Source of the DNA: an uncultured delta proteobacterium | Lineage (GTDB): Bacteria > Desulfobacterota > Binatia > Binatales > Binataceae | Assembly: GCA_963733715.1 (NCBI GenBank) | Contig: CAVTEN010000025.1 | Span: forward strand, 24,931-88,930 | Reading direction: 5' to 3' | DNA length: 64,000 bases | In this document: in pieces, positions 1,816 to 44,808 of the stretch | How the letters are laid out: the number at the start of each line of letters is the position of its first letter | Numbering within the stretch: position 1 is the stretch's first letter | The notes under the pieces: model-generated | The model's database searches: none | Seen by the model: the letters and a program-made list of their open reading frames with translations, nothing else | What the model was told of the DNA's origin: nothing | Program-made: the position numbers and the translations under genes

Positions 1816-3937
1816 CTACTCAAAATCCAGCTTCACTCCCGCCAGCACGTTTATCGTAGGTGACCTGAAGCCGAACGCCTCGGAATAGTTTCGGTCCAAC
1901 AGGTTATTCACGCGCGCGAAAACTTCTTCGTTGGTCACGTGTTTGAGCGGGATTCCTATCGTGTATGACACGACCGCGTTGACCAGGTTGTATGCGGAGT
2001 GATTCGCAATCGGCGGAACTCCGGTCACGGTGATGTCGTCGCGATCGCCCACGAAGATGTAGTTCACGTTGGCGGTGATTTTATCGTGAGGCAGGAAATT
2101 CCCGCTCCGCACGTATTCCAGCAGCGCCGACGCCGTATGCTTCGCCACTCGCAGCGGACGCGGCGGGGTCAAAAACGCTGTGGCAAAAGGGAGCGGGGCG
2201 TCGGCGTGCGTCTCGTCGAGCACGGTCACGTTGCCGCTGAGCGTCAGACCCTTGGCTATTGTGAGGCTCGGGACGATCTCGACGCCCTGCACGTCCACGC
2301 GCGAGGCGTTGCCCGCTTCCGATCCAAATTCACACGTCGGGCCGACCTTGCACGGCACGGTGACGATCAGGTTCTTCACGCGGCGCGAAAAGTAGGTCGC
2401 AGTCAGGGAGGCGCGCTCGCCGAAGTTGGTGGTGAATCCGCCGTCCCACTCGCTTGAAATCTCCGGCTTCAAATTGGGATTGCCGAAGCCGGGGAAGAAC
2501 AGCTCGTTGAATGACGGCGCGCGAAAGCCTTCGCGTATAGCTGCCGCGCAATGTGGTCGAGATTTTTGTGATCGGAATCGCGACCGACCATGCGGGGCTG
2601 ACTTCCTTGCCGAACTGGCTGTTGCCATCGACGCGAAATCCGCCGGTGACAAGAATGTGGCCGTCGAGAAAACTGCCCTCCTGCTCGAGGTAACCCGCGT
2701 ATTCCTGGCGGCGTGCCCGGAACAGGCTTACCGATGTGAGCAATTGCGGCGGGGGCGGATTGAAGTTTGCGAACTTGAAGATGCCATCCGAGCGGACCCA
2801 TCGATCTTTGAAATCGAATCCAACCAGCGTGCGAAAGCCCTCGAGCCGGGGCCAGGTGAACACCGTCTCGATGAGTCCGCCGCGAGTCTCGTCGGGAATG
2901 CGATCCTCCTCGCTGCCTATGAAGCCTAGATAAGGGGTCGAGGTCGCGCGCAAATCCTGGCGCACAAAATACGCGTTCGCGCGCACCAGCACGTATTCGC
3001 CGAAGTGATGCTCGATTTCGCCCTTGAACAACATGAACTCGTTGCGTTGGTGCGCGGTCGGATCCAGTGGAGAGCCGGAGGCTACGTTCAAATTGGGCAG
3101 GCTCACGTTCGACGCGATGTAACGCGCGAAGCCCCGCAGGACAGTGTCGTCGCCGAGGTGGTAGTCGAGCCGTCCGTTGAGCGAGAGATTGTCGGAGTTG
3201 TCGTTGACCGGGCGAAACCCTTCGGTCGAGAAGTACGATACCGCGCCCGAGTAGCCGAGGTTTCCCTCGGCGCCGCTGACGGTTGCAACTTGCCGGCTGG
3301 TTGCTCGATTGCCGCCCTCGGAAAGCAGGCTCGCCGTCGGCGGCCCCTCGCCCTCCTGTGAGAGCAGGTTGATGACGCCGCCGATAGCCTGCGATCCGTA
3401 CAGCGAGCCGCCCGCGCCGCGCAGAACCTCGACGCGATCGAGATTGTCCGTAGTCAGGTTGGCCAAATCGAAGCTGCCGGTCGCGCCCGCGTTGACTTCG
3501 ACCCCGTCGACAAGGACCAGCGTCTGCGACGGCGTCGCGCCGCGAATCGACACGTCGGTAACTGAGCCGGGCGAGCCGCTCTGCGTGACCTGCACGCCGG
3601 GCACCTCGCGCAGCACGTCCGCGACGCGTTGGATCTTCTGCTCTTCGATTTGCGGAGCTTCGACCACCGTGATCGTCGTGCCGATCTCGCCGATTGGCTG
3701 CGGGATTCGCGTCGCGGTGACGACGATCGGATTCAGCTTCTGCGCCGCTTCCTTATTGGCTGGTGTCGCCGGCGTCTTCTTCTTCGACGATGCGGACTCC
3801 GTTCGATTGGCTGGCGAAGCTTTCTGAGTTTGAGTTTGCGCTGGCGACGACGTGGACGCCGGCGTTTGAGCGCGTGCGATCGGTGCATAAAGCGCCGTCG
3901 CCAACACTATCGACAAGATCAAAATGAGAAACCGCAT
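1816..3937 (-). pseudogene. btuB: TonB-dependent receptor, BtuB-like cobalamin outer-membrane transporter; one frameshift near 2527-2545 (possibly an assembly indel)
   Basis: Track ORFs 2330..3937 (signal peptide, TonB box/plug NPIVVTATR, barrel) and 1816..2652 join as ...TLRGSY / REGFRAPSFNELFFPGFGNPNLKPE in different frames. Sits directly downstream of the cobalamin riboswitch. Confidence 0.75.
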
Positions 3938-3994
3938 GAACTCCCTCCGAGTTCAAAGGCTGCCAGCGCGGTGGAGGAGATCAGGTTTCACCTG

Positions 3995-30511: not shown

Positions 30512-31724
30512 ATGGCCGGTGCGCTTGAGGGAGTCCGAGTACTTGATCTGACGACGATGGTCGCGGGCCCGGTCGCGACCATGATGCTAGCTGACCAGGG
30601 CGCTGACGTTATCAAGGTCGAATCGCCGCGCGGCGATCTTATGCGTCATTTCAGCCGTGGCCGCAACGGAATGAATGCGTCCTTTCTAAGCTGCAACCGG
30701 AACAAGCGCTCACTAGCCGTCGATCTCAAGTCAGAAGATGGTCTCCAGATCCTTAAGCGGCTGATAGCTACTGCACAGGTATTCGTTCATAACTTCCGTC
30801 CCGGAATCGCTGAGCGGATAGGTCTCGGCGAAGAAGTAGTAAGATCTGTTCGACGCGACATAGTCTACGTATCGATCACTGGCTATGGGACCAAGGGGCC
30901 CTATGCCAACCAGCGGGCCTATGATCCTGTGATCCAGGCTATGTCCGGCCTTGCGGATATTCAGCGCGACAGGGATACCGGGCGCCCCAGGATGGTGCGA
31001 ACAATCATAGCAGACTACACCACCGCTTTGACGGCAGCTCAGGCGATAACCGCCGCGCTTTTTGCGCGCGAGCGATCCGGCGAAGGTCAGCACGTGCGGC
31101 TCTCGATGCTCGACTGCAATGATTTCCTACCTGTGGCCAGAGGCGATGCCCAGCTTGACCTTTATAGGTTCAGAGACCGATCCCTCGGACGGCGAGTTGG
31201 GTCCCGATCTCGTATTCGCGACGCAGGATCGCTATATAACCGCCGCGGCGCTGTCGGACGACGAATGGGCCGGCATGTGCCGTGCGCTTAATCGGCAGGA
31301 ACTCATCGAGGATCCCCGCTTCAAGACCGCACGCGATCGATCGATAAACGCGGTGGAGCGGCGCACGATAACCTCGACCGAGTTGGAGAAATGGCGCGCC
31401 GATGAAATCCTGCCGCGGCTGCTCGCCAACGACGTTCCATGCGCGCCGGTCCGCAGCCGTTTCGAACTGCTGCAGGACGATCAAGTCCGCGAAAACCACA
31501 TCCTCGAGGAGTTTGAGAGCAAGGAATTCGGGAAGGTGCGAATGCCGCGGGCGGCGGCGCAATTCGATCGCACGCCTGCCAAGGTCCGCACGCTGGCACC
31601 CATGCTGGGCGCGGACAATGCGAGCATCCTCGCAGATCTTGGCTACGGCGCAGACGACATCGCGCGGTTTGAAAACAGTGGAGTCCTACACACTCAATCG
31701 AAGAAGGAATCGGCTGGTGGATAA
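30512..31724 (+). pseudogene. Family III CoA-transferase (CaiB/BaiF type); frameshift ~31100-31125
   Basis: LEGVRVLDLTTMVAGP N-terminus and NKRSLAVDLK motif. Continues in the frame of track ORF 31062..31724 (AMISYLWPEAM...RMPRAAAQFDRTP...LGADN). Confidence 0.8.
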
Positions 31725-34791: not shown

Positions 34792-34841
34792 TGGTGGAGC
34801 TGACGCGGATCGAACGCGCGACCTCCTGAATGCCATTCAGG
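34792..34841. repeat. attL: 50-bp direct repeat identical to the 3' part of tRNA-Ala
   Basis: tggtggagctgacgcggatcgaacgcgcgacctcctgaatgccattcagg is identical to 44732-44781. The sequence diverges immediately outside on both sides. Confidence 0.95.
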
Positions 34842-35114
34842 TTAGGGCTATTTTAGGCTTATATTCCTAGACTTTTCATATTAGCAAAAACGCTAACTTC
34901 CAAGCCCGTTCAAGTCACGGTTCTAGGCTTGAACACCAGTCATAAACACTGGATATATATAGGCTTTCGTATATAGTCAGGATACAGATCAGAGTTATAG
35001 TTTTGTAGTAAACCGCTAATCCAATGCGTTGATTCTGACATTTCGCCTGCCTGCCTCATCTGCTAGCAATCTGCTAGCAAATCGGGTAACCTGACTTTAT
35101 TGGAGAAACAAAAG

Positions 35115-36417
35115 ATGGCGATCAATTTAGACACAATCGAGATTCGCGATAAGGTTCAGAAATCTACCACTACCAAGCCCGCCAGTATCGACGCCCGCGC
35201 AGAACCGGCGCCACCATTAACCGACCCTCGAATCAGGACGCTCAAGCAGCCAGAACGTGGCAATTCGATGGTGCCTGATGGCATTGTTCCAGGTTTGTAT
35301 CTGCGAATTTCCCAAGGCGGAAAGAAATCTTGGCTGGCAACGTACCGCATAAAAGGCGACAGCAGGATGGTTTACCATACTTTTGGTAACTATCCAGGAT
35401 ACGACACTTGGCAAAGCCCGCGATCTCGCTCGACAGTATCGATCACAAGCCAAGCTTGGGATTGATCCACGGCCACAAGAACAGCCGGTTATCGAACTAC
35501 CGACAGTTGCCGATCTTTGCACTGACTATATCGACAATCACGCCATACATAAGCGGAAAGCCTCACAGTACGAAGACAAGGCCATGATCGAGAACTACAT
35601 AAAACCAAAGCTAGGTAAGCTGACTATTGCTGCGGTTACAAGGTTCAATATCGAGGCTTTACTCAATGAAATAGGTCAGCCCAAGAAAGAGAATCATCCT
35701 TACCGTGCTAACCGTGTACGATCATTGCTCAGTACCATGTTTAATCGAGCAGTCGAGGTACATAACTGGTGTACTAGGAATCCAGTTATAGGAACGATCA
35801 AGTTTCCTGAACACGCTCGAAAGCGTTATCTCAGTGCTGAGGAAGCATCACGGTTGATTACCGCGTTGAGTAACTACAAGGATCAGACAGTAGCTAATGC
35901 GATCTTATTCATGCTCTTTACTGGCGCTAGGTCAGGTGAGGTTTTGAGTGTTACTTGGGATCACTTTCTCGATACAGGTGACAAGGTTATATGGAGCAAG
36001 CCATCAGCCCACACTAAGCAGAAACAAGATCATCACGTACCGCTGAATCCTTACGCTATCGAGGTACTTAGACGGATCAAGGAACATAACGAACCGGATC
36101 AGGTTCAGCTATTCCCAAGTAGAGACGGTAAGACGCATCTGGTAACTATAAAGAAATCTTGGAAAACGATACTAACGGCGGCTAAGATCGCGGACCATCC
36201 CGAATTTGGCAGGTTCCGTATCCATGATTTGCGACATTCGTTTGCCAGTCTGCTAATCAACAAGGGTGTATCGCTTGACGTTATCGGCCAGCTCCTAGGC
36301 CATACCAAGATCTCGACAACGTACAGATATGCACACTTAAACACTGCCTCACTGAGTGAGGGAACAAACAAATTAGCTTTGGATTTTCCAGTCCGTGAGG
36401 TTTCAACCCATGAGTGA
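35115..36417 (+). pseudogene. Tyrosine recombinase/integrase (P4-like, N-terminal arm-binding DUF4102-type domain); frameshift ~35390-35410
   Basis: SD ggag + ATG 35115. N-terminus LTDPRIRTLKQPERG...GLYLRISQGGKKSWLATYR...FGNYPG, then TLGKARDLARQYRSQAKLGIDP in the frame of ORF 35383..36417. Catalytic RIHDLRHSFAS...LGHTKISTTYRYAHL. Confidence 0.85.
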
Positions 36418-36595
36418 CATTGAAATCCGAATAGGTGCGGGCATAGCGCTTACTTTACTGCTGTTTTTTCTCGGCAGAACGCTTGTATGGTGGTACTTTG
36501 GAATTGATAGGGCACTGGAGCTGCTCGCGTCGATTGATAAATCCTTGAAGCAACTGCCAGCGGTCCAACGGTCTACCTATCGCAAAGAAGCCTGA
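36410..36595 (+). CDS. Small single-pass membrane protein, unknown function
   Basis: ATG 36410 overlaps the integrase end. MSDIEIRIGAGIALTLLLFFLGRTLVWWYF... has one TM helix. Followed by a terminator-like hairpin. Confidence 0.45.
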   Translation: MSDIEIRIGAGIALTLLLFFLGRTLVWWYFGIDRALELLASIDKSLKQLPAVQRSTYRKEA

Positions 36596-36613
36596 ACATA
36601 CGATTCAGAACAT

Positions 36614-36652
36614 ATGCCCTGTCAGCCGGAAACGGCTATTCAGGGCATTTTC
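36614..36652 (+). terminator. Terminator-like hairpin after the integrase/small-ORF unit
   Basis: atgccctg..agccg-gaaa-cggct..cagggcat, a two-tier stem with GNRA loop, followed by TTTT. Confidence 0.5.
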
Positions 36653-37326
36653 ATATGTCCGGTGGCATCTCTGCCTAGCCGGAATACTCGGAAGGCTTAA
36701 AAGGGCTGTAATGAGGGAATTTAAATAAAAGAAAACCCACAACTGGGAATTAGTCAGTTATGGGTTAGCAGAGGAAACTCCGATTGTTTTCATTGTGGTG
36801 AATGGTCGCTGCTAGGCGAGTACAACCGGTTTAGTCGGAATGGACGGGAGACCAACTAGGGCTAAGTGTTACATTTTATTCGGAGATTTGCAAGTGGGCG
36901 GCTAAGGACTTAGACAGTTCAGATAACCATTCAATCACCCCATAGTTGCATTTCCTTCCAATTTCCGTTACAAACGTAAGTACTGCTAGGGTTGCTTCAT
37001 TGTTCACTCAGTTCTCAATCAAAGCAGTCAGACGTAAGGCGCTATACTTCACATTGGAAGTAACTTACCTATCAGGACAATCGGTAACACTAATTGATCC
37101 TGACCATAGTACGAATGGAATGGAGAGGGAAACTAAAACACTCCCTCTTTATTAAATCGTCATTGTCATTCCGATTTAATCGGACAGACTCCAGGCCTCA
37201 ACCTTCACAATATAAGAGGTTTGGATTTACAAAAATAACTGTACTCGCATTCCATGCGAGTACGACAGCCTTCCTAGGCTGTCATTATAAGTAATATATA
37301 GGAACCAAGGGAGAAGATTAAAGAAT

Positions 37327-37545: not shown

Positions 37546-37734
37546 ATGTCAATATTATCAGATGAACAGATGCAGGACTTTGAGGCTATGAGCAGGATTC
37601 ATGGTGTGGAGTTTGCTATTAAATCTGCTGAGAAGTATTTACAGAAGAGACTCAGACGGAAAGGACTTAGGAAGGATGAGCAAACCGCCTTACTAGAGGC
37701 ATTGCGTAAGGAATTGTCAGCTACGGAGAGTTAA
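37546..37734 (+). CDS. Hypothetical helical basic protein (62 aa), island ORFan
   Basis: Starts 1 nt after the previous stop. Predicted all-helical, Lys/Arg-rich (KRLRRKGLRKDEQ). Could be a small DNA-binding or regulatory protein. Confidence 0.45.
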   Translation: MSILSDEQMQDFEAMSRIHGVEFAIKSAEKYLQKRLRRKGLRKDEQTALLEALRKELSATES

Positions 37735-38096
37735 CTACCCTTAGAATCTATCCACACATCCACAAGCACAGTTCCGGTCTCTGCCGTACATGCCAGACTT
37801 ACAGTCGGACTTGAATAGTTGGTCAGGTAATTACCTGACACAAATTCATATCCAAGAGTAGCACTGGGCGTTGTACTTGAAGGCTGACCGTTAACAAGTC
37901 CAGGAATGCAATTCACTGAACCATCACGCGCATGCATGGTCCAGTATAATCGTGTTGGGTCGAATGCTAGTACCTGAGTATTGGTAGTTACAGAGACTTG
38001 AATATAGCTTGGACTGCCTGTCACGATCTGAGCCCTAGAGACACCGGACATAGATATTACACATAAAAAGATATAAGCGATGAGAAATGTTTTCAT
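37731..38096 (-). CDS. Secreted small beta-rich protein (121 aa), last gene of the island operon
   Basis: Start at ATG 38096 (MKTFLIAYIFLCVISMSGVSRAQ, Sec signal) overlaps the upstream stop as TAATG. Two Cys. Confidence 0.65.
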   Translation of the reverse strand: MKTFLIAYIFLCVISMSGVSRAQIVTGSPSYIQVSVTTNTQVLAFDPTRLYWTMHARDGSVNCIPGLVNGQPSSTTPSATLGYEFVSGNYLTNYSSPTVSLACTAETGTVLVDVWIDSKGS

Positions 38097-39877
38097 TAGA
38101 CTGGTACCACTAGAGTTTTGATTTGGGCTGACCAATCCGCTAGAAGTCCTTGAATGTTAGCGGTTGGTATTTTGAGATTTGTAAGATTATTGGTAACGTA
38201 GGTAGCATCGACCAATGATTTGATAAACTGTTCCTTGATTGCTGCAACCTTTTCTCTGAGAAGGATTGCCTGATTTCTTGGCAATAGTAATCCGAAGGTA
38301 TCGACGCGACGTGCCTGTAATTCTGTTTCTAGTAGAATAATTGTCATCGGCACTAGTGAGAGATCAAGGCCACTGATGCCTATAGCTGCTGACATGGCAG
38401 CGAAATCTGTCTGACCACTAAGATAACTGGATTTGGCTTGCTGTATATTGAGCCTGATACGCTGAGCCTCTAACTTTGCCTCTGCTCTTGCAGTAGCCGC
38501 AATCTCACGACCATGAAGTTTGCTTGACGCGATGCCATAGTAGCCATCGGCTAGGTTTGTATCCATGCCAGCGGCGGTTAGACTGGCTACATACTGCGCA
38601 TCTGCCAGTTGGTTCGTGTTGTAAAGTGTATCAATCTCACGTCGATACAAACCTAGCAGCGTGTCTAATTTCCGCTGGGCAACGGTGAGAATTATCAGAT
38701 TGATAGCTGTAGTTCCGTAACCTATATTTGTCAGGTCAGTATTTAATTCCGCTTCAGAGATAGTGCCCAGCTCGGATGAACGTATTACCGATGCAACGTA
38801 GCCCTGTCTCAATGCCGAAACTGATTTATACTCGTAAGCATTTAACAGAGTCGGTATGTTTGTGTCGCTGATGCCGGAATCTTCTAGTAGTAACTGCACC
38901 TGATTTCTGTCAAAAGGCGCGTCTGTGTAGAGATTGGTTAATTGTCTAGGATTGAGTGGCCTAAATGCAGTTGCTTTAGTCGAATCAACATAGTCAGCAC
39001 GAACACCGGCATACGCGAGCAACGTATCGGCCTGCGTATCAGTGATCTTACGGCGCGCATATTGTCCCAGGGCTGGACCGATTGCAGGAACATAGGGTCT
39101 GAACTTCTGATTGACCTGATATTTGCGATTCGCACCTATTGACGCTTCCCAGTACGGACCATGCAGATTCTTGCGGATGTCTTCATAGGCTAGTAGCTCG
39201 ACTAGTAGTACGGCATTGTTTGACCATAGGCTACTCATTGGGTAACCGAGAAACTTAGCCAAATCGCTTAGAATATGAATGCCTTGACCTATGATCCAAG
39301 CGAATCCGAATGCCCTGAAGCCTCTATCTTCTGCATTATCAGGAGTGATTGGACCACCGTTCTCTATAACCGTTTCCGTTAATTGGAAAACTGATTTGGG
39401 TAGTAGATCGACCCAATCACTTGTATGTGTAGTTAGCGATAGAAGGGGTGCCTCTAGCTGCTTGAGTATCGTAGTTGCCGGTGTATTGCTGCCAGTGATA
39501 AGCTTGCCAATCTCATTATTTGCATAGTCGAATAGCTTGGCGAGTAAGTCCTTGAGGTATGAGAGAATGCGATTCGCTTCGGCTGGATCAACACTGCCGA
39601 GATACTTTAATACCTTGATTGTTTCTGGCGCGTAGCGAGATGGATCAATTCTTACTCTTGCAGGGTCGCCAAGAATCTGACCGACCTGCGGATCAATGAT
39701 GCCTAACTCTACCATCCGATCCAAGAGATCCTTACCGGCAATGTCCAAATCATTGATCTCTTTAAGTTGCTCTACAATTCCGCTTACGTTGAACGTCTCG
39801 GAATTGGTTAAAGTGTCGTTTATGCCTGATAATTGCTGAGCGATAACTGTAGTGTTCTTGTCTGCATCAGCAGGCAA
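38096..39877 (-). CDS. Large island protein (593 aa): central hydrophobic segment and long C-terminal helical region; tape-measure-like or membrane-active, unknown
   Basis: Long uninterrupted ORF in AT-rich DNA. Hydrophobic stretch FRAFGFAWIIGQGIHILSDLAKFLGYP...AVLLVELLAY. C-terminal Ala/Leu/Gln-rich helices. No Walker A. TTG start is uncertain. Confidence 0.7.
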   Translation of the reverse strand: MPADADKNTTVIAQQLSGINDTLTNSETFNVSGIVEQLKEINDLDIAGKDLLDRMVELGIIDPQVGQILGDPARVRIDPSRYAPETIKVLKYLGSVDPAEANRILSYLKDLLAKLFDYANNEIGKLITGSNTPATTILKQLEAPLLSLTTHTSDWVDLLPKSVFQLTETVIENGGPITPDNAEDRGFRAFGFAWIIGQGIHILSDLAKFLGYPMSSLWSNNAVLLVELLAYEDIRKNLHGPYWEASIGANRKYQVNQKFRPYVPAIGPALGQYARRKITDTQADTLLAYAGVRADYVDSTKATAFRPLNPRQLTNLYTDAPFDRNQVQLLLEDSGISDTNIPTLLNAYEYKSVSALRQGYVASVIRSSELGTISEAELNTDLTNIGYGTTAINLIILTVAQRKLDTLLGLYRREIDTLYNTNQLADAQYVASLTAAGMDTNLADGYYGIASSKLHGREIAATARAEAKLEAQRIRLNIQQAKSSYLSGQTDFAAMSAAIGISGLDLSLVPMTIILLETELQARRVDTFGLLLPRNQAILLREKVAAIKEQFIKSLVDATYVTNNLTNLKIPTANIQGLLADWSAQIKTLVVPV

Positions 39878-39899
39878 AGCAGCTACTGACGTATTTATA

Positions 39900-40511
39900 T
39901 TATTCAGCGCATGGACTCACCGGAGTTAAATCTATGGGTGTACTCGATTTACCACTGCCTGAAACCTTAATCGCTTGCGAGATCTCATACAGGAAAGCGT
40001 TCACTTGCCCTACGTATCCCCCTAGCTGAGTGCATGTTACTGGATCGAGATTCGTAGGTTGTCCAGTAATGCCCTGCGCCAGTTGTGAGATCTGATATCG
40101 GAGATAAATCAGATTCTGACTGATACAGTCGAGACCATTAGTTAGTTCATCTCCAGGATTACCAACAGGAATACACGGTGGAGGTGTAGGTGGAGGTGGT
40201 GGAGGTGGTGGAGGTGGAGGTGGAGGTGGTGGAGGTGGAGGTGGTGGTGGATTCTGCGGCTGGATCGGTGTAATCGGAATTACAGGATTAGCTTTGCAAG
40301 TCTCCGTAGCTGGGTCCCAAGTAAAACCCTCTGGACATGTCGGAACCTTTTGAACCGCGAGCACTGCGCATAGATGATCCAGTACGCTGGTCCATTGAAT
40401 GAGATCCTGACCGTCGCCATGCTGGAAATTAAGTTCTGCAACTGGAACGTCGCCATATCCATCAGGGCAATCATCGCCCTGAACAGTTGGCGAATCCTGT
40501 GGAGCTATCAC
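39900..40511 (-). CDS. Cys-containing N-domain / poly-proline linker / helical C-domain protein (203 aa)
   Basis: 21 consecutive Pro codons (40188-40250), then T and PPP. N-domain has CPDGYGD...C...CPEGFTWDPATETC. GTG start overlaps the preceding ORF by 41 nt (could be a fusion via indel). Confidence 0.65.
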   Translation of the reverse strand: MIAPQDSPTVQGDDCPDGYGDVPVAELNFQHGDGQDLIQWTSVLDHLCAVLAVQKVPTCPEGFTWDPATETCKANPVIPITPIQPQNPPPPPPPPPPPPPPPPPPPPPTPPPCIPVGNPGDELTNGLDCISQNLIYLRYQISQLAQGITGQPTNLDPVTCTQLGGYVGQVNAFLYEISQAIKVSGSGKSSTPIDLTPVSPCAE

Positions 40512-40776
40512 CGCTGGTAACGATGAACCGTCTCAGTCCGATGTGGATGCTAACGAAGAGTATTATTGGGATCGGGCTGAAGTTAACCGGCGTGCGATAG
40601 TAGCCAAGTGGCAGAGTATCCCAAGGTGCGAAAAATGCGTGATACTGAGTCCATCCGCCTTTCTCGATTTCGTATGTAAAGACCACGTAGCTAAGATTCC
40701 CAGGATGAACCAGTGTGCTTGGGAAAGTAGGCTGTGGGCCTAAGAATGGTGGTGGTGGTATATTGTCGGTAGCCAT
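40471..40776 (-). CDS. Pro-rich N-terminus, C-terminal TM helix protein (101 aa)
   Basis: MATDNIPPPPFLGPQPTFP..., hydrophobic FSPIPIILFVSIHIGL. Co-directional within the operon. Confidence 0.5.
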   Translation of the reverse strand: MATDNIPPPPFLGPQPTFPSTLVHPGNLSYVVFTYEIEKGGWTQYHAFFAPWDTLPLGYYRTPVNFSPIPIILFVSIHIGLRRFIVTSGDSSTGFANCSGR

Positions 40777-40855
40777 TTAATCGTTTGCAACCTGATACCA
40801 GAAGAAACAGCCACAATTGAAACTCTCTTTCGAGGTTAGTGCCTATTCAGATACG

Positions 40856-41308
40856 CTATCCTTTGGGAATGATGAACATAGGGAACGGTGAAAAGTTCGT
40901 AGCACTATCAAACCCGCTGCATCCGATGGCGCTGAACAGTTTGGCAGGAATGAAAGGATTCGGAGTGTTATTGTTATTGCCGAGAGATGTAGCCAGGATG
41001 TAGATCAATCCAGGTGGCGTACCTCTGTCAGGTCGGATCGCTTGTGGTGGTGGCTGCAACGTTCCTAGCACTTCATTGGAATACCAGAAGCCCCATCCTT
41101 CACCAGCGAATCCGCTGACATAGATTCCATATACTTTGAATGTTCGGCCTTGGCTGTCATTGTTGAACAGTGAGACGGTGATATAGTTGCCACCGCTTGG
41201 CTGTGGGTACGGGAGCCTAGCACCACTGACACCGAGATTGTCATCGAACCAATCAGGTGCGGGACGCGTAAGAACGCCTAAAGGATACTTTCCCGATGCG
41301 TCAGACAT
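40856..41308 (-). CDS. Beta-rich island ORFan (150 aa), candidate structural protein
   Basis: SD ggag 9 nt upstream of the ATG. Composition (G/P/N/S/F/Y-rich, alternating hydrophobic pattern) suggests a beta-sandwich. Confidence 0.65.
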   Translation of the reverse strand: MSDASGKYPLGVLTRPAPDWFDDNLGVSGARLPYPQPSGGNYITVSLFNNDSQGRTFKVYGIYVSGFAGEGWGFWYSNEVLGTLQPPPQAIRPDRGTPPGLIYILATSLGNNNNTPNPFIPAKLFSAIGCSGFDSATNFSPFPMFIIPKG

Positions 41309-41325
41309 TAGAACTACTCCGTAGC

Positions 41326-41679
41326 CTAAATGCCTGAGCCAGTTAGGATCTGTTCTGTAATATGAACCTGTCCGCTAAATCCAGGTGTAGTGACAGCGTA
41401 AAAAGCTAGAGTAGGTAGATCGTTATCCTGTTGGAAGTGATATTTGAGTATCTCCCCAGGAGGTACGAGCACACCGAAAATACCTGATACGTTACTTGAT
41501 GTAGAAATAACGGCATTGTTAGAACCTGTATTCGAGAATTGAATCCAGATCCTAGCGCCATTATTAGTTACAAGCGTGGAAACGGATGGACTAAGAGCCA
41601 CATCCGATTCACGTATTATGCCTTCAAGATCGCTATCATACTCCGCAAATAGCAGTTGTCTACAATTGCGGTATGACAT
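41326..41679 (-). CDS. Beta-rich island ORFan (117 aa), candidate structural protein
   Basis: ATG lies 1 nt after the upstream TAG (translational coupling). Ser/Thr/Asn/Val-rich beta-strand-like pattern. Confidence 0.65.
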   Translation of the reverse strand: MSYRNCRQLLFAEYDSDLEGIIRESDVALSPSVSTLVTNNGARIWIQFSNTGSNNAVISTSSNVSGIFGVLVPPGEILKYHFQQDNDLPTLAFYAVTTPGFSGQVHITEQILTGSGI

Positions 41680-41680
41680 A

Positions 41681-42451
41681 CTAACCTGTTACTGAACTGG
41701 AAACCTGTACTAGGTCTAACCAGAGTTCTTCTGCTGTGTCGGCACTGCCTGCGAATATTTCTACTTGAGGTAATGCTGTAGTAGCGAAAGTAATAAACTG
41801 ACCACTTGCTCCATATCGAGCATACTTATAGTCATAGCCGTCATAGCTATTAACCATAGGTACTCCAGGACGGTAGGTTTGTGATCCGCTATTCGGAATT
41901 AATCTAGCTGCGATGCCTGTAGGAGAATAAGCACGCATTCCTATGACACTGTAAGTGCCAGGATCTAGCGAAGTGTCGAGAGCGAATGTTACTGAAGTCC
42001 AAGCATTAGCTGTAACTGTGGCTGAAGCTGTAGCGTGAACTGTGATAGCACCCAATGGGCTAGCAGGACGTACAGGTCCATCGGTGAAAAACACTAGGCT
42101 TGAAACTGTTCCAGGTGAACCTGAGTTCTGAGCAGCAAAGAAATCTAACTCTTCATTGCTTCTGACCTGTAAGGGGTTAGCATAAAAGTCAGTAAATCTA
42201 ACTGGAGACTCTGCCCCTGTAGATCTATTTACTGGAACTATGTCTATGAAAGGTTGAACACGTAAGCTAGCTGATTGTAACTGTCCGCGAATACCACCTG
42301 ACGCTACAACTACAACACTGGACATCTTGTTCAAGTTCTGAACTAGAAATCCATTATTAGTCTTAGGATAGATGTTACTTGTTACAGCATTTACTTGTAG
42401 TAGTGCTGTACCGGACGCAATGCTAGAGCTGTATAATTCGAGGTGATTCAT
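41681..42451 (-). CDS. Island ORFan (256 aa), candidate major structural (jelly-roll-like?) protein
   Basis: SD gagg upstream. Beta-rich, no Cys, no low-complexity. Size is in the range of small-virus major capsid proteins. Function is inferred only. Confidence 0.65.
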   Translation of the reverse strand: MNHLELYSSSIASGTALLQVNAVTSNIYPKTNNGFLVQNLNKMSSVVVVASGGIRGQLQSASLRVQPFIDIVPVNRSTGAESPVRFTDFYANPLQVRSNEELDFFAAQNSGSPGTVSSLVFFTDGPVRPASPLGAITVHATASATVTANAWTSVTFALDTSLDPGTYSVIGMRAYSPTGIAARLIPNSGSQTYRPGVPMVNSYDGYDYKYARYGASGQFITFATTALPQVEIFAGSADTAEELWLDLVQVSSSVTG

Positions 42452-42465
42452 ATTATATCAACCTC

Positions 42466-42912
42466 TTATAGAGTGCCACGTAAGGCAGATACTTGCTGTA
42501 GGTATGAAGTTAAGCGAGTGATATTCTGTGCTGAACCTCTAGGGCCTCTAGGATTCGTTCTGTTCAAGTTAGAAGTGATTGAATCTAACTGAGGCAAGAA
42601 GGCATTCATAAATGCAGTTTCTTTGCTGGTCTTTGTGGTAGCTGAAGCTACGTACTTCTGTTGGCTTGAACCGTTAACAGTCGCTGTGAAAGCAGTAACG
42701 TCAACGTTCTGAAGCCCTTTAACGAAGTTGTTTTGAGCAGCCTGACTTGATACAGCCGCTACCCAGTTAACTGAAGCTGCTGCCGCTTGGAAAGGATCGC
42801 GCGTAGGTGAAAGAACGCCAGTAGACCATTTAGTCCCTGAACGCTGAACGCCTGCTGTCCAATTTGCTACTGCCTGAGCAGGAGTCTTTGTTTGTCTGAT
42901 TGTAAGTGCCAT
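42466..42912 (-). CDS. Island ORFan (148 aa), Ala/Thr/Ser/Gln-rich helical basic protein, first gene of the operon
   Basis: Starts the minus-strand operon at the divergent control region. Repeated W-x-x-G/A-V pattern (ANWTAGV, TKWSTGV, VNWVAAV). Confidence 0.6.
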   Translation of the reverse strand: MALTIRQTKTPAQAVANWTAGVQRSGTKWSTGVLSPTRDPFQAAAASVNWVAAVSSQAAQNNFVKGLQNVDVTAFTATVNGSSQQKYVASATTKTSKETAFMNAFLPQLDSITSNLNRTNPRGPRGSAQNITRLTSYLQQVSALRGTL

Positions 42913-43090
42913 TTTAAACCTTGTGTGCCCATATCGGGCTGCAAGGTTCGCAACTGGCTATTAGCAACGTGTTATGTCTGTGGGATGCAACGTCCGCGAG
43001 ATACACTTTTGGCTAAAGCCAAGTGCGAACGTTGCTAATAATGGACTGTATACTAGAAGTATGATAAAGTCAAGTCTAGTAGGTATTCAA

Positions 43091-43562
43091 ATGGCTATAC
43101 GTATTAATGCAAATCAACAAAGAGAAACACAACTTCTTATGGAATGGCTATTATCATTGGGTAAGACCACTGCTTGGAAAACACATGTCAATGTAGGGGC
43201 TGAAATGTTACAATACAATGGTAAACCTTTCGACGCCAGCCCAACAGAAAGCGTTCGGAGTCTGGAACAGTTGGGCAGATGCCAGGGTCTTCACTGGTAC
43301 TGAGGTACTGTTAGTCGAAGCTAAGATCGTAGCGACTGGTACAGCATATGGTGAAATCTTAGATTATCTAGACCAGTACCCTAGTAGCTCTGACTACAAA
43401 CAGTACTCAACTTATCCAGTCAGGGGCGTAGTTCTGGCAGCGTATGTTAAAGACCGTACAAGAATGCTGTTTTCTAACTACGGTATCCAAACTGTAATCT
43501 TCACACCTGTATGGGCTGGAGACACGCTAGCTAATAAAGTCTTTACTGGAATCGGGACTTAG
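43091..43562 (+). pseudogene. PD-(D/E)xK nuclease-like protein (Hjc/restriction-endonuclease fold candidate); frameshift ~43215-43250
   Basis: MAIRINANQQRETQLLMEWL...THVNVG (helix with Glu, strand), then in the other frame WADARVFTGTEVLLVEAKI, i.e. a D-x13-E-x-K arrangement. Confidence 0.4.
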
Positions 43563-43805
43563 TAGATCACGTAGTACGATCTATAGAAGTTGATTCAATG
43601 TAGATAGTCCGACAATTTAAACTCGATTCAGAGTGATACCCACCCCGTATCGAAAACCTACCCACCCATTTTCAATTTTTATTTTGATTTTCACGATATA
43701 GTTTGCGATTGCAAAGCCGGTCAAACATTTTCCAAGTTACTACTAGGACTTGAATTAGTCACTGATTAGTGTCATATTGGTATGTTTCGCTAATGAGGTA
43801 TATTT

Positions 43806-44072
43806 ATGTTACTCTATAACGCACTAACTCAAATTTGTTCCCAAGCCGGTTCCATCGCAAGACGTCCTAACGGTGTAATGCTTCAAGTGACCGACCGTAT
43901 GAAGCTTCTGACTTTTAACTCTGGCAGGGCATACCGCTGGACTCCCAAGACAAGAGACCTGTTAGCGGATGACTGGGAAGTTATTTCTATAGAGAGACTT
44001 ATAGAAGAGACTCGCTTAATGCAGGAACAGGCCGAACTAGACCAGTCTGAAGGGGCTGAATCCAATGGCTAG
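43806..44072 (+). CDS. DUF2829-like small protein (family that includes the anti-Thoeris sponge Tad2)
   Basis: N-terminal ALTQICSQAGSIARRPNG and C-terminal YRWTPKTRDLLADDWEVI match my memory of the DUF2829 signature (EAL..GKKVARKGWNG ... W.pSQtDlLAeDWeiV). Confidence 0.45.
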   Translation: MLLYNALTQICSQAGSIARRPNGVMLQVTDRMKLLTFNSGRAYRWTPKTRDLLADDWEVISIERLIEETRLMQEQAELDQSEGAESNG

Positions 44073-44586
44073 TACTACGATCTTTGCCCTATTATCCGAA
44101 CCTTTCGAGTATGTTGATCTTGCACATTCAATGTCTATGACCATTCAAGTTACAGCCTTTGAAGATGGATCAGGCTTGATACATCCGACTAATCCAAGCC
44201 CAAAGCATGTACGTCAACATATCGATCAGAATGGATTAACTGAACCGCCAGCGTCAGGAACGCCGATAGGCGTGCAGGTTCCAGTTCTCAGACTGTTTGG
44301 ATCAAGAATCGATAAAGCGAGTCCCTCACCGTATTGGGACATCAGCTCCAGGACGTTACAGGCACAATTGCTGCCACTTCTGGACGTACAGGCTGGAAGT
44401 ACCTCCGACTACCGCGTTAGAAGCCCGCAAATCGGCTACCAGCTACGGCAAAGTACCATTGCTGACACCGATCACGGTCAAGATCACAGCGAATGGTGCG
44501 CGACCGCAGAAACGGTATTCTCTGGAAGTTCTCTAAATACATTGGTCATGGAAATTGGATGCAGTGCGGGGAATCTGGAAGCGTGA
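44065..44586 (+). CDS. Island ORFan (173 aa); C-terminal third may be frameshifted
   Basis: ATG overlaps the previous stop by 8 nt. The alternative frame (track ORF 44297..44536) ends in more protein-like sequence (LTPITVKITANGARPQKRYSLEVL). Confidence 0.45.
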   Translation: MASTTIFALLSEPFEYVDLAHSMSMTIQVTAFEDGSGLIHPTNPSPKHVRQHIDQNGLTEPPASGTPIGVQVPVLRLFGSRIDKASPSPYWDISSRTLQAQLLPLLDVQAGSTSDYRVRSPQIGYQLRQSTIADTDHGQDHSEWCATAETVFSGSSLNTLVMEIGCSAGNLEA

Positions 44587-44731: not shown

Positions 44732-44781
44732 TGGTGGAGCTGACGCGGATCGAACGCGCGACCTCCTGAATGCCATTCAGG
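44732..44781. repeat. attR: 50-bp direct repeat (functional 3' part of tRNA-Ala)
   Basis: Identical to 34792-34841. Confidence 0.95.
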
Positions 44782-44808
44782 CGCTCTCCCAAACTGAGCT
44801 ACAGCCCC
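44732..44808 (-). tRNA. tRNA-Ala (anticodon GGC), CCA encoded
   Basis: Minus strand GGGGCTGTAGCTCAGTTTGGGAGAGCGCCTGAATGGCATTCAGGAGGTCGCGCGTTCGATCCGCGTCAGCTCCACCA. Cloverleaf folds by eye, G3:U70 Ala identity pair, anticodon loop AUGGCAU. Confidence 0.9.

Follow-up and report, generated by a model that had tools for sequence, protein, structure and literature searches.

Introduction

A packaging ATPase of the FtsK/HerA type is typical of the double jelly-roll viruses of the kingdom Bamfordvirae, the known exceptions being FLiP/PhiCjT23 and the Odin group. The members of the Odin group have 7-11 kilobases (kb), a major capsid protein (MCP) of the double jelly-roll type and no packaging ATPase (Yutin et al. 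2018, Virol J 15:67, PMC5894146), and assembly of the shell around the genome, without a motor, has been proposed for them (PMC5894146). FLiP/PhiCjT23 include temperate members with proviruses (PMC9719478). Here we describe a locus that recalls these systems, in a stretch of 64,000 nucleotides (nt), hereafter the window, of contig CAVTEN010000025.1 from an uncultured delta proteobacterium of the Binataceae. We think it probable that the region 37731-42912 of this window is the virion-building block of a 9.9-kb temperate virus, which would belong to a family of 10-11 kb tailless viruses of soil bacteria.

A block of minus-strand genes in an integrated element

The region had first been described, from its letters and ORF translations, as an operon of eight coupled ORFan genes laid out like a virion module. 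All eight co-directional open reading frames (ORFs) of this initial annotation are present on the minus strand in the ORF listing, with spacers of 1-22 nt (the first three of 14, 1 and 17 nt) or overlaps between them. As the annotation had also found, no family can be assigned to them, and Pfam, PHROGs and NCBIfam give no match for any of the eight proteins. A scan for sigma-70 promoters and terminators returned sites no commoner than in shuffled sequence, so that the case for an operon is one of co-orientation and spacing only. The block consists of the following features:

42466-42912, minus strand: basic protein of 148 amino acids (aa); ORF with homologs in 93 ORFs of related loci
41681-42451, minus strand: putative major capsid protein of 256 aa; AlphaFold2 model, Foldseek matches and family profile
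41326-41679, minus strand: acidic conserved protein of 117 aa, directly after the capsid gene; isoelectric point (pI) about 5, syntenic homologs in most relatives
40777-41308, minus strand: acidic beta-sandwich protein of about 165-175 aa, a pseudogene here (150-aa ORF at 40856-41308); in-frame stops and a frameshift
38096-40776, minus strand: remnant of a large Pro/Cys-rich gene (about 900 aa), made up of ORFs of 101 aa (40471-40776), 203 aa (39900-40511) and 593 aa (38096-39877); alignment to the relative L002
37731-38096, minus strand: secreted protein, 121 aa from the ATG at 38096 (134 aa from a TTG, 37731-38135); Sec-type signal MKTFLIAYIFLCVISMSGVSRA/Q

The block lies in an island with sharp edges, where the GC content is about 0.45 between two exact 50-nt direct repeats and about 0.61 outside them. 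The repeats, spaced 9,940 nt apart, mark the limits of the element:

34792-34841, no strand: distal attachment repeat (50 nt), left border; same as the 3' part of tRNA-Ala, exact repeat and GC step
44732-44808, minus strand: tRNA-Ala(GGC), found by ARAGORN, Rfam tRNA 59.7 bits; its 3' 50 nt (44732-44781) are the proximal attachment repeat

The element carries a tyrosine integrase gene, whose frame is broken, and the direct repeat of the tRNA 3' end stands at both of its borders. Since the eight-ORF block lies within this island flanked by attachment (att) repeats, it is part of an integrated mobile element and not a chromosomal operon. The TonB-dependent receptor genes that flank the element indicate a Gram-negative host. 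Note that the tRNA is the sole Rfam match in the element, and that no att repeats or tRNAs were found within the retrieved flanks of four integrated relatives.

A large family with a fixed gene order

The term ORFan proved wrong at the family level. The 256-aa protein has 50 homologs (31-93% identity) in public metagenomes and metagenome-assembled genomes, all of them without a name and most on contigs of up to about 11.8 kb. When the profile of this capsid family was searched against 1.84 billion cluster representatives, 1,490 clusters (50% identity) matched at E<=1e-3, and for 865 of them the match reached E<=1e-30; nearly all are full-length, at 246-284 aa. The family is frequent in soil, peat and sediment metagenomes.

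About 100 related loci were retrieved and their ORFs clustered with iterated hidden Markov models. Across about 100 independent contigs the order of the genes is fixed, beginning with a divergent one of about 165 aa, then the basic protein of about 148 aa, the protein of about 256 aa, that of about 117 aa or a substitute, the protein of about 170 aa in one or two copies, and the large protein. An extra gene of about 190 aa sometimes stands between the ~117-aa and ~170-aa genes in the relatives, and the large protein is encoded there either by two genes (about 350-440 and about 550 aa) or by a fused one (about 900-1,600 aa). Comparison with relatives of 83% nt identity, a check that the initial annotation had proposed, revealed purifying selection, with ratios of nonsynonymous to synonymous substitutions (dN/dS) of 0.12 for the 148-aa, 0.11 for the 256-aa and 0.17 for the 117-aa gene.

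Current virus-detection resources miss this lineage. No Pfam, PHROG or NCBIfam model covers the capsid family, and when GenBank phages and PLSDB plasmids were searched by tblastn with the capsid protein, nothing matched. Two IMG/VR scans yielded no confirmed relative; the same peptide pattern had 171 matches in JGI metagenomes and 0 in IMG/VR. No description of the family was found in the literature searched, which was a limited collection.

The annotation had offered, as its second option, a tube/chaperone/tape-measure arrangement, and the block could in principle serve a tailed phage, or a phage satellite, as its module for the tail or for assembly. A long, partly helical protein does follow small beta proteins, in an order that is superficially similar. 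However, this option has to be dropped as hardly credible, since neither the window (Pfam, PHROGs, NCBIfam) nor any of the scanned relatives (Pfam) has an HK97-type capsid, portal, terminase, tube or baseplate family, the whole genomes measure just 10-11 kb, and the Foldseek searches returned no tail-tube match.

A candidate double jelly-roll capsid protein

The AlphaFold2 (AF2) model of the 256-aa protein, for which a 39-sequence alignment was used as input, is all-beta, with sixteen strands arranged as 8+8, a mean predicted local distance difference test score (pLDDT) of 92.4 and a predicted template modelling score of 0.90. The beta-rich nature that had been read from the sequence is thus borne out by the model. 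The annotation had suggested comparing such a model with known capsid proteins, and among the PDB structures ranked by Foldseek PM2 P2 came first (2vvf_A, 269 aa; E 7.9e-4, probability 0.95), the same list including the PhiCjT23 capsid (rank 5), PBCV-1 (rank 14) and PRD1 P3 (rank 35). In BFVD, the best match was D5L264, a 152-aa protein of an uncultured virus, which aligns over one domain (128 columns) with a target template modelling (TM) score of 0.73; the MCPs of tectiviruses (Wip1, GC1) and of giant viruses matched weakly. The 256-aa protein is also the most conserved member of the block and the most uniform in length. It is likely, but not proven, that it is a double jelly-roll MCP with a minimal fold. 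The match to PM2 P2, the att-flanked element and the virus-sized relatives together support the compact virion module, with jelly-roll capsid and vertex proteins, that the initial annotation had named as its first option.

A probably decaying copy

Although the co-orientation and spacing of the eight ORFs stand, the block does not hold eight intact genes: four ORFs (150, 101, 203 and 593 aa) are fragments of two ancestral ones. The reading frame of the 150-aa ORF contains a TAG (Tyr in the relatives, in the motif P-x-G-Y-S-L), a TGA and a frameshift, all within about 40 nt, and the conserved C-terminus of the ~170-aa gene, GCFFWYQVAND, stands in another frame, ending at 40777. The 101-, 203- and 593-aa ORFs match consecutive stretches of one 934-aa ORF in L002, the closest full-length relative, and in L003. 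These pieces of the large gene lie in frames -2, -3 and -1, and an in-frame TGA (ASTSD-stop-DGSS) stands where the relatives have ARTYPDGRV. The 593-aa protein, for which a hydrophobic segment and a helical C-terminus had been noted, is not a separate gene but part of an ancestral gene of about 900 aa. The integrase and two further genes are also frameshifted, and the tally over 9.9 kb is about six frameshifts and three nonsense codons.

The 121-aa protein has the Sec-type N-terminal signal peptide that had been assigned to it, counted from the ATG at 38096, and has no homolog among the about 100 related loci; by this comparison the gene that closes the block is an accessory one, specific to this lineage. 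The ancestral block, as reconstructed from the alignments, is made of five conserved genes plus this one lineage-specific secreted protein.

The density of lesions in the element is more than 10 times that in the host part of the window, and stop-codon substitutions are atypical of indel errors. The copy in the window is probably a decaying, defective provirus, with assembly indels as a caveat. A close relative, L024 (NCBI GCA_009772455.1, 83% nt identity), has its own Tyr-to-stop change in the ~170-aa gene (2902-3441; IAL-stop-NNATT, with Y in L025). Inactivation of this gene may be recurrent among integrated copies.

The distribution of the lesions also bears on the idea of a domesticated remnant, in which the element would be dead and the host would retain the 148-, 256- and 117-aa genes, as a capsid-derived compartment or for the exclusion of related viruses. 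Apart from the integrase and accessory genes, the lesions indeed hit only the 170-aa gene and the large one, while the 148-, 256- and 117-aa genes and a 1.8-kb fragment encoding 593 aa are intact. However, only about five to six independent lesion events are involved, a pattern that could arise by chance; the nearest relatives, of 83% nt identity, are elements of the ordinary kind whose partner genes are intact; and dN/dS measures the history of the family, not selection after integration. We regard domestication as very improbable.

The other proteins of the block

The members of the 148-aa family are basic without exception (pI 9.9-11.6), have no hydrophobic segment and in every case have their gene immediately upstream of that for the capsid protein. 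They share an invariant motif near the C-terminus, P-R/K-G...N..R, and their profile had no significant match to PDB sequences. The capsid, 117-aa and 150-aa families are acidic, with pI about 5. None of the core proteins (148, 256, 117 and 170 aa) has a signal peptide or a transmembrane segment. When the families of 117 and ~170 aa and the two halves of the capsid protein were compared among themselves, no relationship emerged.

From its sequence and position, the 117-aa protein is a candidate minor capsid or penton protein. For the ~170-aa protein we modelled an intact homolog, P0203, for which AF2 predicts, at pLDDT 79.5, a sandwich made up entirely of beta strands and preceded by a disordered arm at the N-terminus. 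The beta-rich character ascribed to the 150-aa protein thus holds for its intact homolog, whereas the ORF in the window is a truncated pseudogene. The matches of P0203 are generic ones of the jelly-roll type, to coat proteins of single-stranded RNA and single-stranded DNA viruses, Cry domain III and tumour necrosis factor-like lectins. In some relatives the ~170-aa gene is duplicated or carries a 200-aa insertion. On the model, its product is a candidate vertex or minor capsid protein, and of the two proteins it would be the likelier five-fold or host-recognition unit, because it is variable, duplicable and tolerant of insertion.

The large protein has a conserved N-terminal domain followed by Cys modules, poly-Pro linkers and a long helical part with hydrophobic segments. 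The Cys modules read C-P-x-G-x-x-W-D-x-x-T-x-T-C and reach the Pfam threshold for CBM_14 in relatives (45 and 28.5 bits). Stand-alone homologs of the C-terminal part often begin with one to three hydrophobic helices. A tblastn search with the 593-aa protein against GenBank phages gave no match. The poly-Pro tract, which the annotation had recognised, is a GGT/GGA repeat in the window (40168-40263).

As a side observation, the Cys/poly-Pro part of the large protein derives from tandem DNA repeats. The units are of 78 nt in L018 (8171-8344), and elsewhere there are Pro-codon repeat units of 9-12 nt (L007 9443-9535; window 40168-40263), and the length of this part varies widely among relatives.

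Points against a virion block, and two other readings

Several results weigh against reading the region as a virion-building block with a PM2-like capsid protein. The whole-chain TM score is low even for the best match of the 256-aa model (0.27 to PM2 P2), and in the PDB Foldseek search it is closely followed by proteins of two sandwiches that are not viral (C1q head, Cry toxins, SGBP-B). Sequence profiles do not make the link either: hmmsearch of the capsid-family profile against PDB sequences found no match at E<=10, hhalign gave the family profile a probability of 0.1 against PM2 P2 residues 3-266 and of 0.3 against the Odin MCP LGVF01378372 gene 2 (387/395 aa, from the supplement of the paper), and comparison of the N- and C-terminal halves of the capsid protein gave no signal of internal duplication. 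For P0203, the best Foldseek match had E 7.7e-3, no match was significant and no penton protein was among them. Unlike PM2, PRD1 and FLiP, the core block has no small membrane proteins. Moreover, two host genes are also split, those for a TonB-dependent receptor (1819-3952, minus strand) and a family III CoA-transferase (30512-31724, plus strand); Pfam checks of suspicious ORF pairs identified the Plug and barrel parts of the former and profile positions 1-197 and 205-366 of the latter. Some of the indels in the element may therefore be assembly errors, or the host genes may be pseudogenes. Finally, virion formation is here predicted from genes and models.

The low TM scores and borderline E-values of the double jelly-roll matches, and the best BFVD match to one domain, would suit a virus structural module whose lattice is not of the PM2/PRD1 type. 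The 256-aa protein would then be a spike or turret and the 117-aa and ~170-aa proteins would form a single jelly-roll shell, or the capsid would have a novel fold. It also fits that the family does not have the packaging ATPase that double jelly-roll viruses typically carry, and the ~170-aa family is tandemly duplicated in many relatives. Sphaerolipoviruses have two single jelly-roll MCPs, and the tandem copies recall them, as a lead only. We consider such a lattice unlikely, however, since the 256-aa protein is conserved and uniform in length as a shell protein should be, its top solved match is a double jelly-roll MCP of similar size, and the variability of the ~170-aa protein, which takes a 200-aa insertion, is typical of exposed vertex proteins.

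The CBM_14-like Cys modules, the poly-Pro linkers and the signal-peptide protein look adhesin-like, and the generic matches to lectin and toxin beta-sandwiches point in the same direction. These features raise the question of a non-viral integrative element, a small plasmid or island whose block would encode secreted or surface beta-sandwich proteins; the window has no hallmark viral enzyme, and searches of IMG/VR and GenBank phages gave no relative. This reading is improbable, in our view. Signal peptides and transmembrane segments are missing from the core proteins, genes for conjugation, mobilisation or partition are absent, and the size is fixed at 10-11 kb, some members being linear with a family B DNA polymerase (PolB), terminal repeats and defined ends. 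A pair of basic and acidic shell-like proteins, as found here, is typical of virions. The pattern is that of a virus, not of a plasmid or adhesin island, because a fixed structural block, about 60% of a size-constrained genome, is combined with exchangeable replication and integration modules.

Genome forms and replication modules of the relatives

Returning to the virus reading, we found that the block occurs in genomes of several forms. Six relatives are circular, at 10.6-11.2 kb (terminal overlaps of 55-141 nt), and integrases adjoin the integrated relatives L002, L007 and L018. One distant relative, L020 (Logan SRR14194035, 10,781 nt, capsid 32% identical), encodes a protein-primed PolB and a phi29-type single-stranded DNA-binding protein (SSB) and has an exact inverted terminal repeat of 30 nt, a length that equals the k-1 of the assembler, so that the true repeat may be longer and collapsed. 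Another, L039, encodes a 260-aa rolling-circle replication protein (Rep) of the G2P/ORF2 type, the only Rep among the relatives scanned. The element in the window has no Rep, PolB or terminal repeats (Pfam, PHROGs and NCBIfam; repeat search). No Walker-A protein was found in the element or in 103 related contigs, which total 653 kb and have 1,699 ORFs of 100 aa or more, and there was no Pfam or NCBIfam ATPase match.

Many of the other relatives look linear. The divergent gene at the head of the block is PD-(D/E)XK-like, and 42 of 77 related contigs start 40-200 nt past its stop; 22 of these 42 open with a T-run (background 2.3%). In 10 of the 14 full-length contigs (10.2-11.2 kb), the T-run is found inverted at the opposite end. 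The contigs with such ends are the following:

Linear-end loci: L001, L011, L014, L019, L039, L042, L053, L068, L072, L076, L080, L103 and about 30 shorter contigs

To judge from these sequences, the T-run contig ends look like true ends of linear genomes, with very short inverted repeats and no recognisable polymerase.

Several relatives have in common a protein of about 400 aa (FAATWRD...C-x-x-C-x-G-C...HKLHRR...LELEPG) with no Pfam match, at these positions:

L064, 5318-6523
L067, 5433-6593
L074, 2429-3655
L082, 5224-6591
L084, 9131-10423
L085, 7900-9339
L103, 8700-9929

Its carriers include four circular genomes (among them L064, L067 and L084), and it may be their replication initiator. 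A different protein, of 401 aa, is encoded in the circular L004 (3051-4256) after the large structural gene; it has a signal peptide and Gly/Asn-rich repeats and matches no family. It may be an alternative host-recognition or depolymerase-like protein.

Integrase and plus-strand genes outside the block

Outside the block, the element contains these features:

35100-36417, plus strand: P4-type tyrosine integrase in two frames (35100-35465 and 35383-36417); Pfam domains, 1-nt frameshift near 35385
36395-36595, plus strand: 66-aa ORF with one hydrophobic segment; single homolog, in L012
37327-37734, plus strand: two small ORFs (71 and 62 aa), in this copy only; no homolog in any retrieved locus, no Pfam match
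43091-43562, plus strand: conserved divergent gene with a D...ExK motif, PD-(D/E)XK-like; frameshift at about 43232, ORFs here 42974-43303 and 43218-43562
43563-43805, no strand: spacer homologous to the physical ends of linear relatives; A/T run, then GGGTGGGTAGG on the minus strand
43806-44072, plus strand: small conserved protein of 88 aa, weakly Tad2-like; Pfam and profile-versus-PDB comparison, dN/dS 0.17
44065-44536, plus strand: conserved gene, about 110-177 aa in relatives; frameshift here at about 44404

The first ORF of the integrase has the Pfam domain Arm-DNA-bind_3, and the second has Phage_int_M and Phage_integrase (E 4.7e-31). The gene is split by an additional base near 35385, and reading the junction as FGNYP/g/DTTLGKAR gives back the canonical motif.

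The divergent gene, of about 156-180 aa in the relatives, is present in all of them. Residues 1-47 of a relative align in frame 2 of the window and residues 48-156 in frame 3. In the family alignment D63 and E76 are invariant and K78 is near-invariant. The family has no significant match in Pfam or among PDB sequences; the match to NucS is faint (E 0.09, NCBIfam) and there is none to ParB. This gene adjoins the site where the linear relatives end, and a role in the generation or processing of genome ends is plausible on the strength of its motif and position.

The Tad2-like match of the 88-aa protein (Pfam, E 1.2e-4) is below the cut-off and is seen in four of nine members; 22 homologous ORFs of 75-97 aa are found in the relatives. 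When the family profile was compared with the PDB, the best four matches were all Tad2 proteins of similar length, with E 0.04-0.07, which is not significant. The protein is a candidate anti-defence (Thoeris) protein by these comparisons. In the last gene, the counterpart of residues 5-108 of the L002 homolog is encoded at 44092-44403 (frame 1) and that of residues 109-151 at 44405-44533 (frame 2).

The interval 36600-37326 (about 730 nt), which separates the integrase side from the two small ORFs of the plus strand, has no ORF and no Rfam match and is not kept in L002 or L018. A minus-strand hairpin (10-bp stem) followed by a T-run lies at 37241-37263.

Proposed mechanism and significance

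We propose that a tyrosine recombinase inserted the virus into the 3' end of the tRNA-Ala gene of a Gram-negative host of about 61% GC. The 256-aa protein would form trimeric, pseudo-hexagonal capsomers, like PM2 P2, with the 117-aa and ~170-aa proteins as minor or vertex capsid proteins, and the large Pro/Cys-rich protein would serve as adsorption spike and genome-delivery device. As no member has a P-loop ATPase, packaging probably does not work by pumping the DNA into a shell made beforehand. The shell would assemble around a genome condensed by the basic 148-aa protein, as proposed for the Odin group (PMC5894146). The divergent genes (the PD-(D/E)XK-like one, the Tad2-like one and one other) may act in DNA-end processing and counter-defence.

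A broader claim falls slightly short of even chances in our estimation. It holds that the copy in the window is a decayed one and that its lineage is very large (at least 1,490 clusters) and ranks as a family or higher, with a minimal PM2-like capsid, no ATPase, a basic protein that condenses the genome and at least four lifestyles. As part of the same joint claim, these would be tRNA-integrating; circular; linear with PolB and terminal repeats; and linear with T-run ends and no recognisable polymerase. If true, the T-run form hints at a new way to replicate or process linear genomes.

Small tailless viruses are under-represented in catalogues, and a profile of this capsid family would flag many "unknown" contigs of 10-11 kb. 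If the capsid is of the double jelly-roll type, the lineage would be the third and largest ATPase-less case after FLiP/PhiCjT23 and the Odin group, and its five-gene module makes DNA uptake by ATPase-less capsids directly testable. One capsid block combined with an integrase, a rolling-circle Rep, a protein-primed PolB or an unexplained linear form cleanly illustrates how viruses exchange modules in evolution. The 10-kb low-GC island in the window is explained as a probably dead provirus; the weight lies in the virus family that it exposes, not in the single decayed copy.

Comparison with known virus groups

With the Odin group the family has in common the absence of a packaging ATPase, a size within 7-11 kb and a small conserved protein whose gene immediately precedes that of the MCP, while further small proteins, likewise conserved, are encoded downstream, one of them a predicted beta sandwich (PMC5894146). 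In both, PolB and integrase are sporadic, and stand-alone forms with direct or inverted terminal repeats occur beside proviruses (PMC5894146). The match is in architecture only. The Odin MCP has about 395 aa and is linked by HHpred to STIV and PM2, whereas the MCP candidate here has 256 aa and no profile similarity to it, and membership in the Odin MCP sequence cluster was rejected on the hhalign result and on length. The Odin group, known from marine sediment, has conserved ParB and PD-(D/E)XK nucleases; the family here, from soil and peat bacteria, has no ParB match, and its divergent gene has the D...ExK motif but no significant family match.

PM2 (Corticoviridae/Vinavirales) provides the best structural match, P2 being a minimal double jelly-roll MCP of 269 aa, and likewise has about 10 kb and circular and proviral forms. 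At least one relative, L039, encodes a rolling-circle Rep, although of the G2P/ORF2 type and not of the P12 type. In contrast to PM2, the family has no sequence or profile similarity to P2, no P9-type ATPase, no set of small membrane proteins and no shared genes, while the integrase and the tRNA insertion are features of the copy in the window. Membership in Corticoviridae/Vinavirales was therefore rejected, there being no P2-homologous MCP, P9-type ATPase or P12-type Rep.

The Finnlakeviridae (FLiP, PhiCjT23) share with the family a minimal double jelly-roll MCP (putative here), the absence of a packaging ATPase, a small genome and temperate members. Their genomes are circular single-stranded DNA of 7.6-9.2 kb, always with a rolling-circle Rep, and they have an internal membrane and use XerC/D dif-like sites in Flavobacterium. 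Most relatives here, in contrast, have no recognisable Rep, many look linear, the tyrosine integrase targets a tRNA, and the family is known from assemblies alone.

Apart from the weak BFVD matches to tectivirus MCPs, the likeness to the Tectiviridae (PRD1, Bam35, Wip1, GC1) is limited to L020, with its protein-primed PolB, phi29-type SSB and inverted terminal repeats. Tectiviruses have about 15 kb, always a P9 ATPase, many membrane proteins and an MCP of about 350-395 aa, whereas the element in the window has no PolB or terminal repeats; being integrated, and with no ATPase anywhere in the family, it was not placed there. A Caudoviricetes structural module was likewise rejected after Pfam, PHROGs, NCBIfam and the top Foldseek matches gave no HK97-fold MCP, portal, terminase, tail tube or tape measure. 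We place the element in no named family, and it is best called an element that resembles an ATPase-less double jelly-roll virus.

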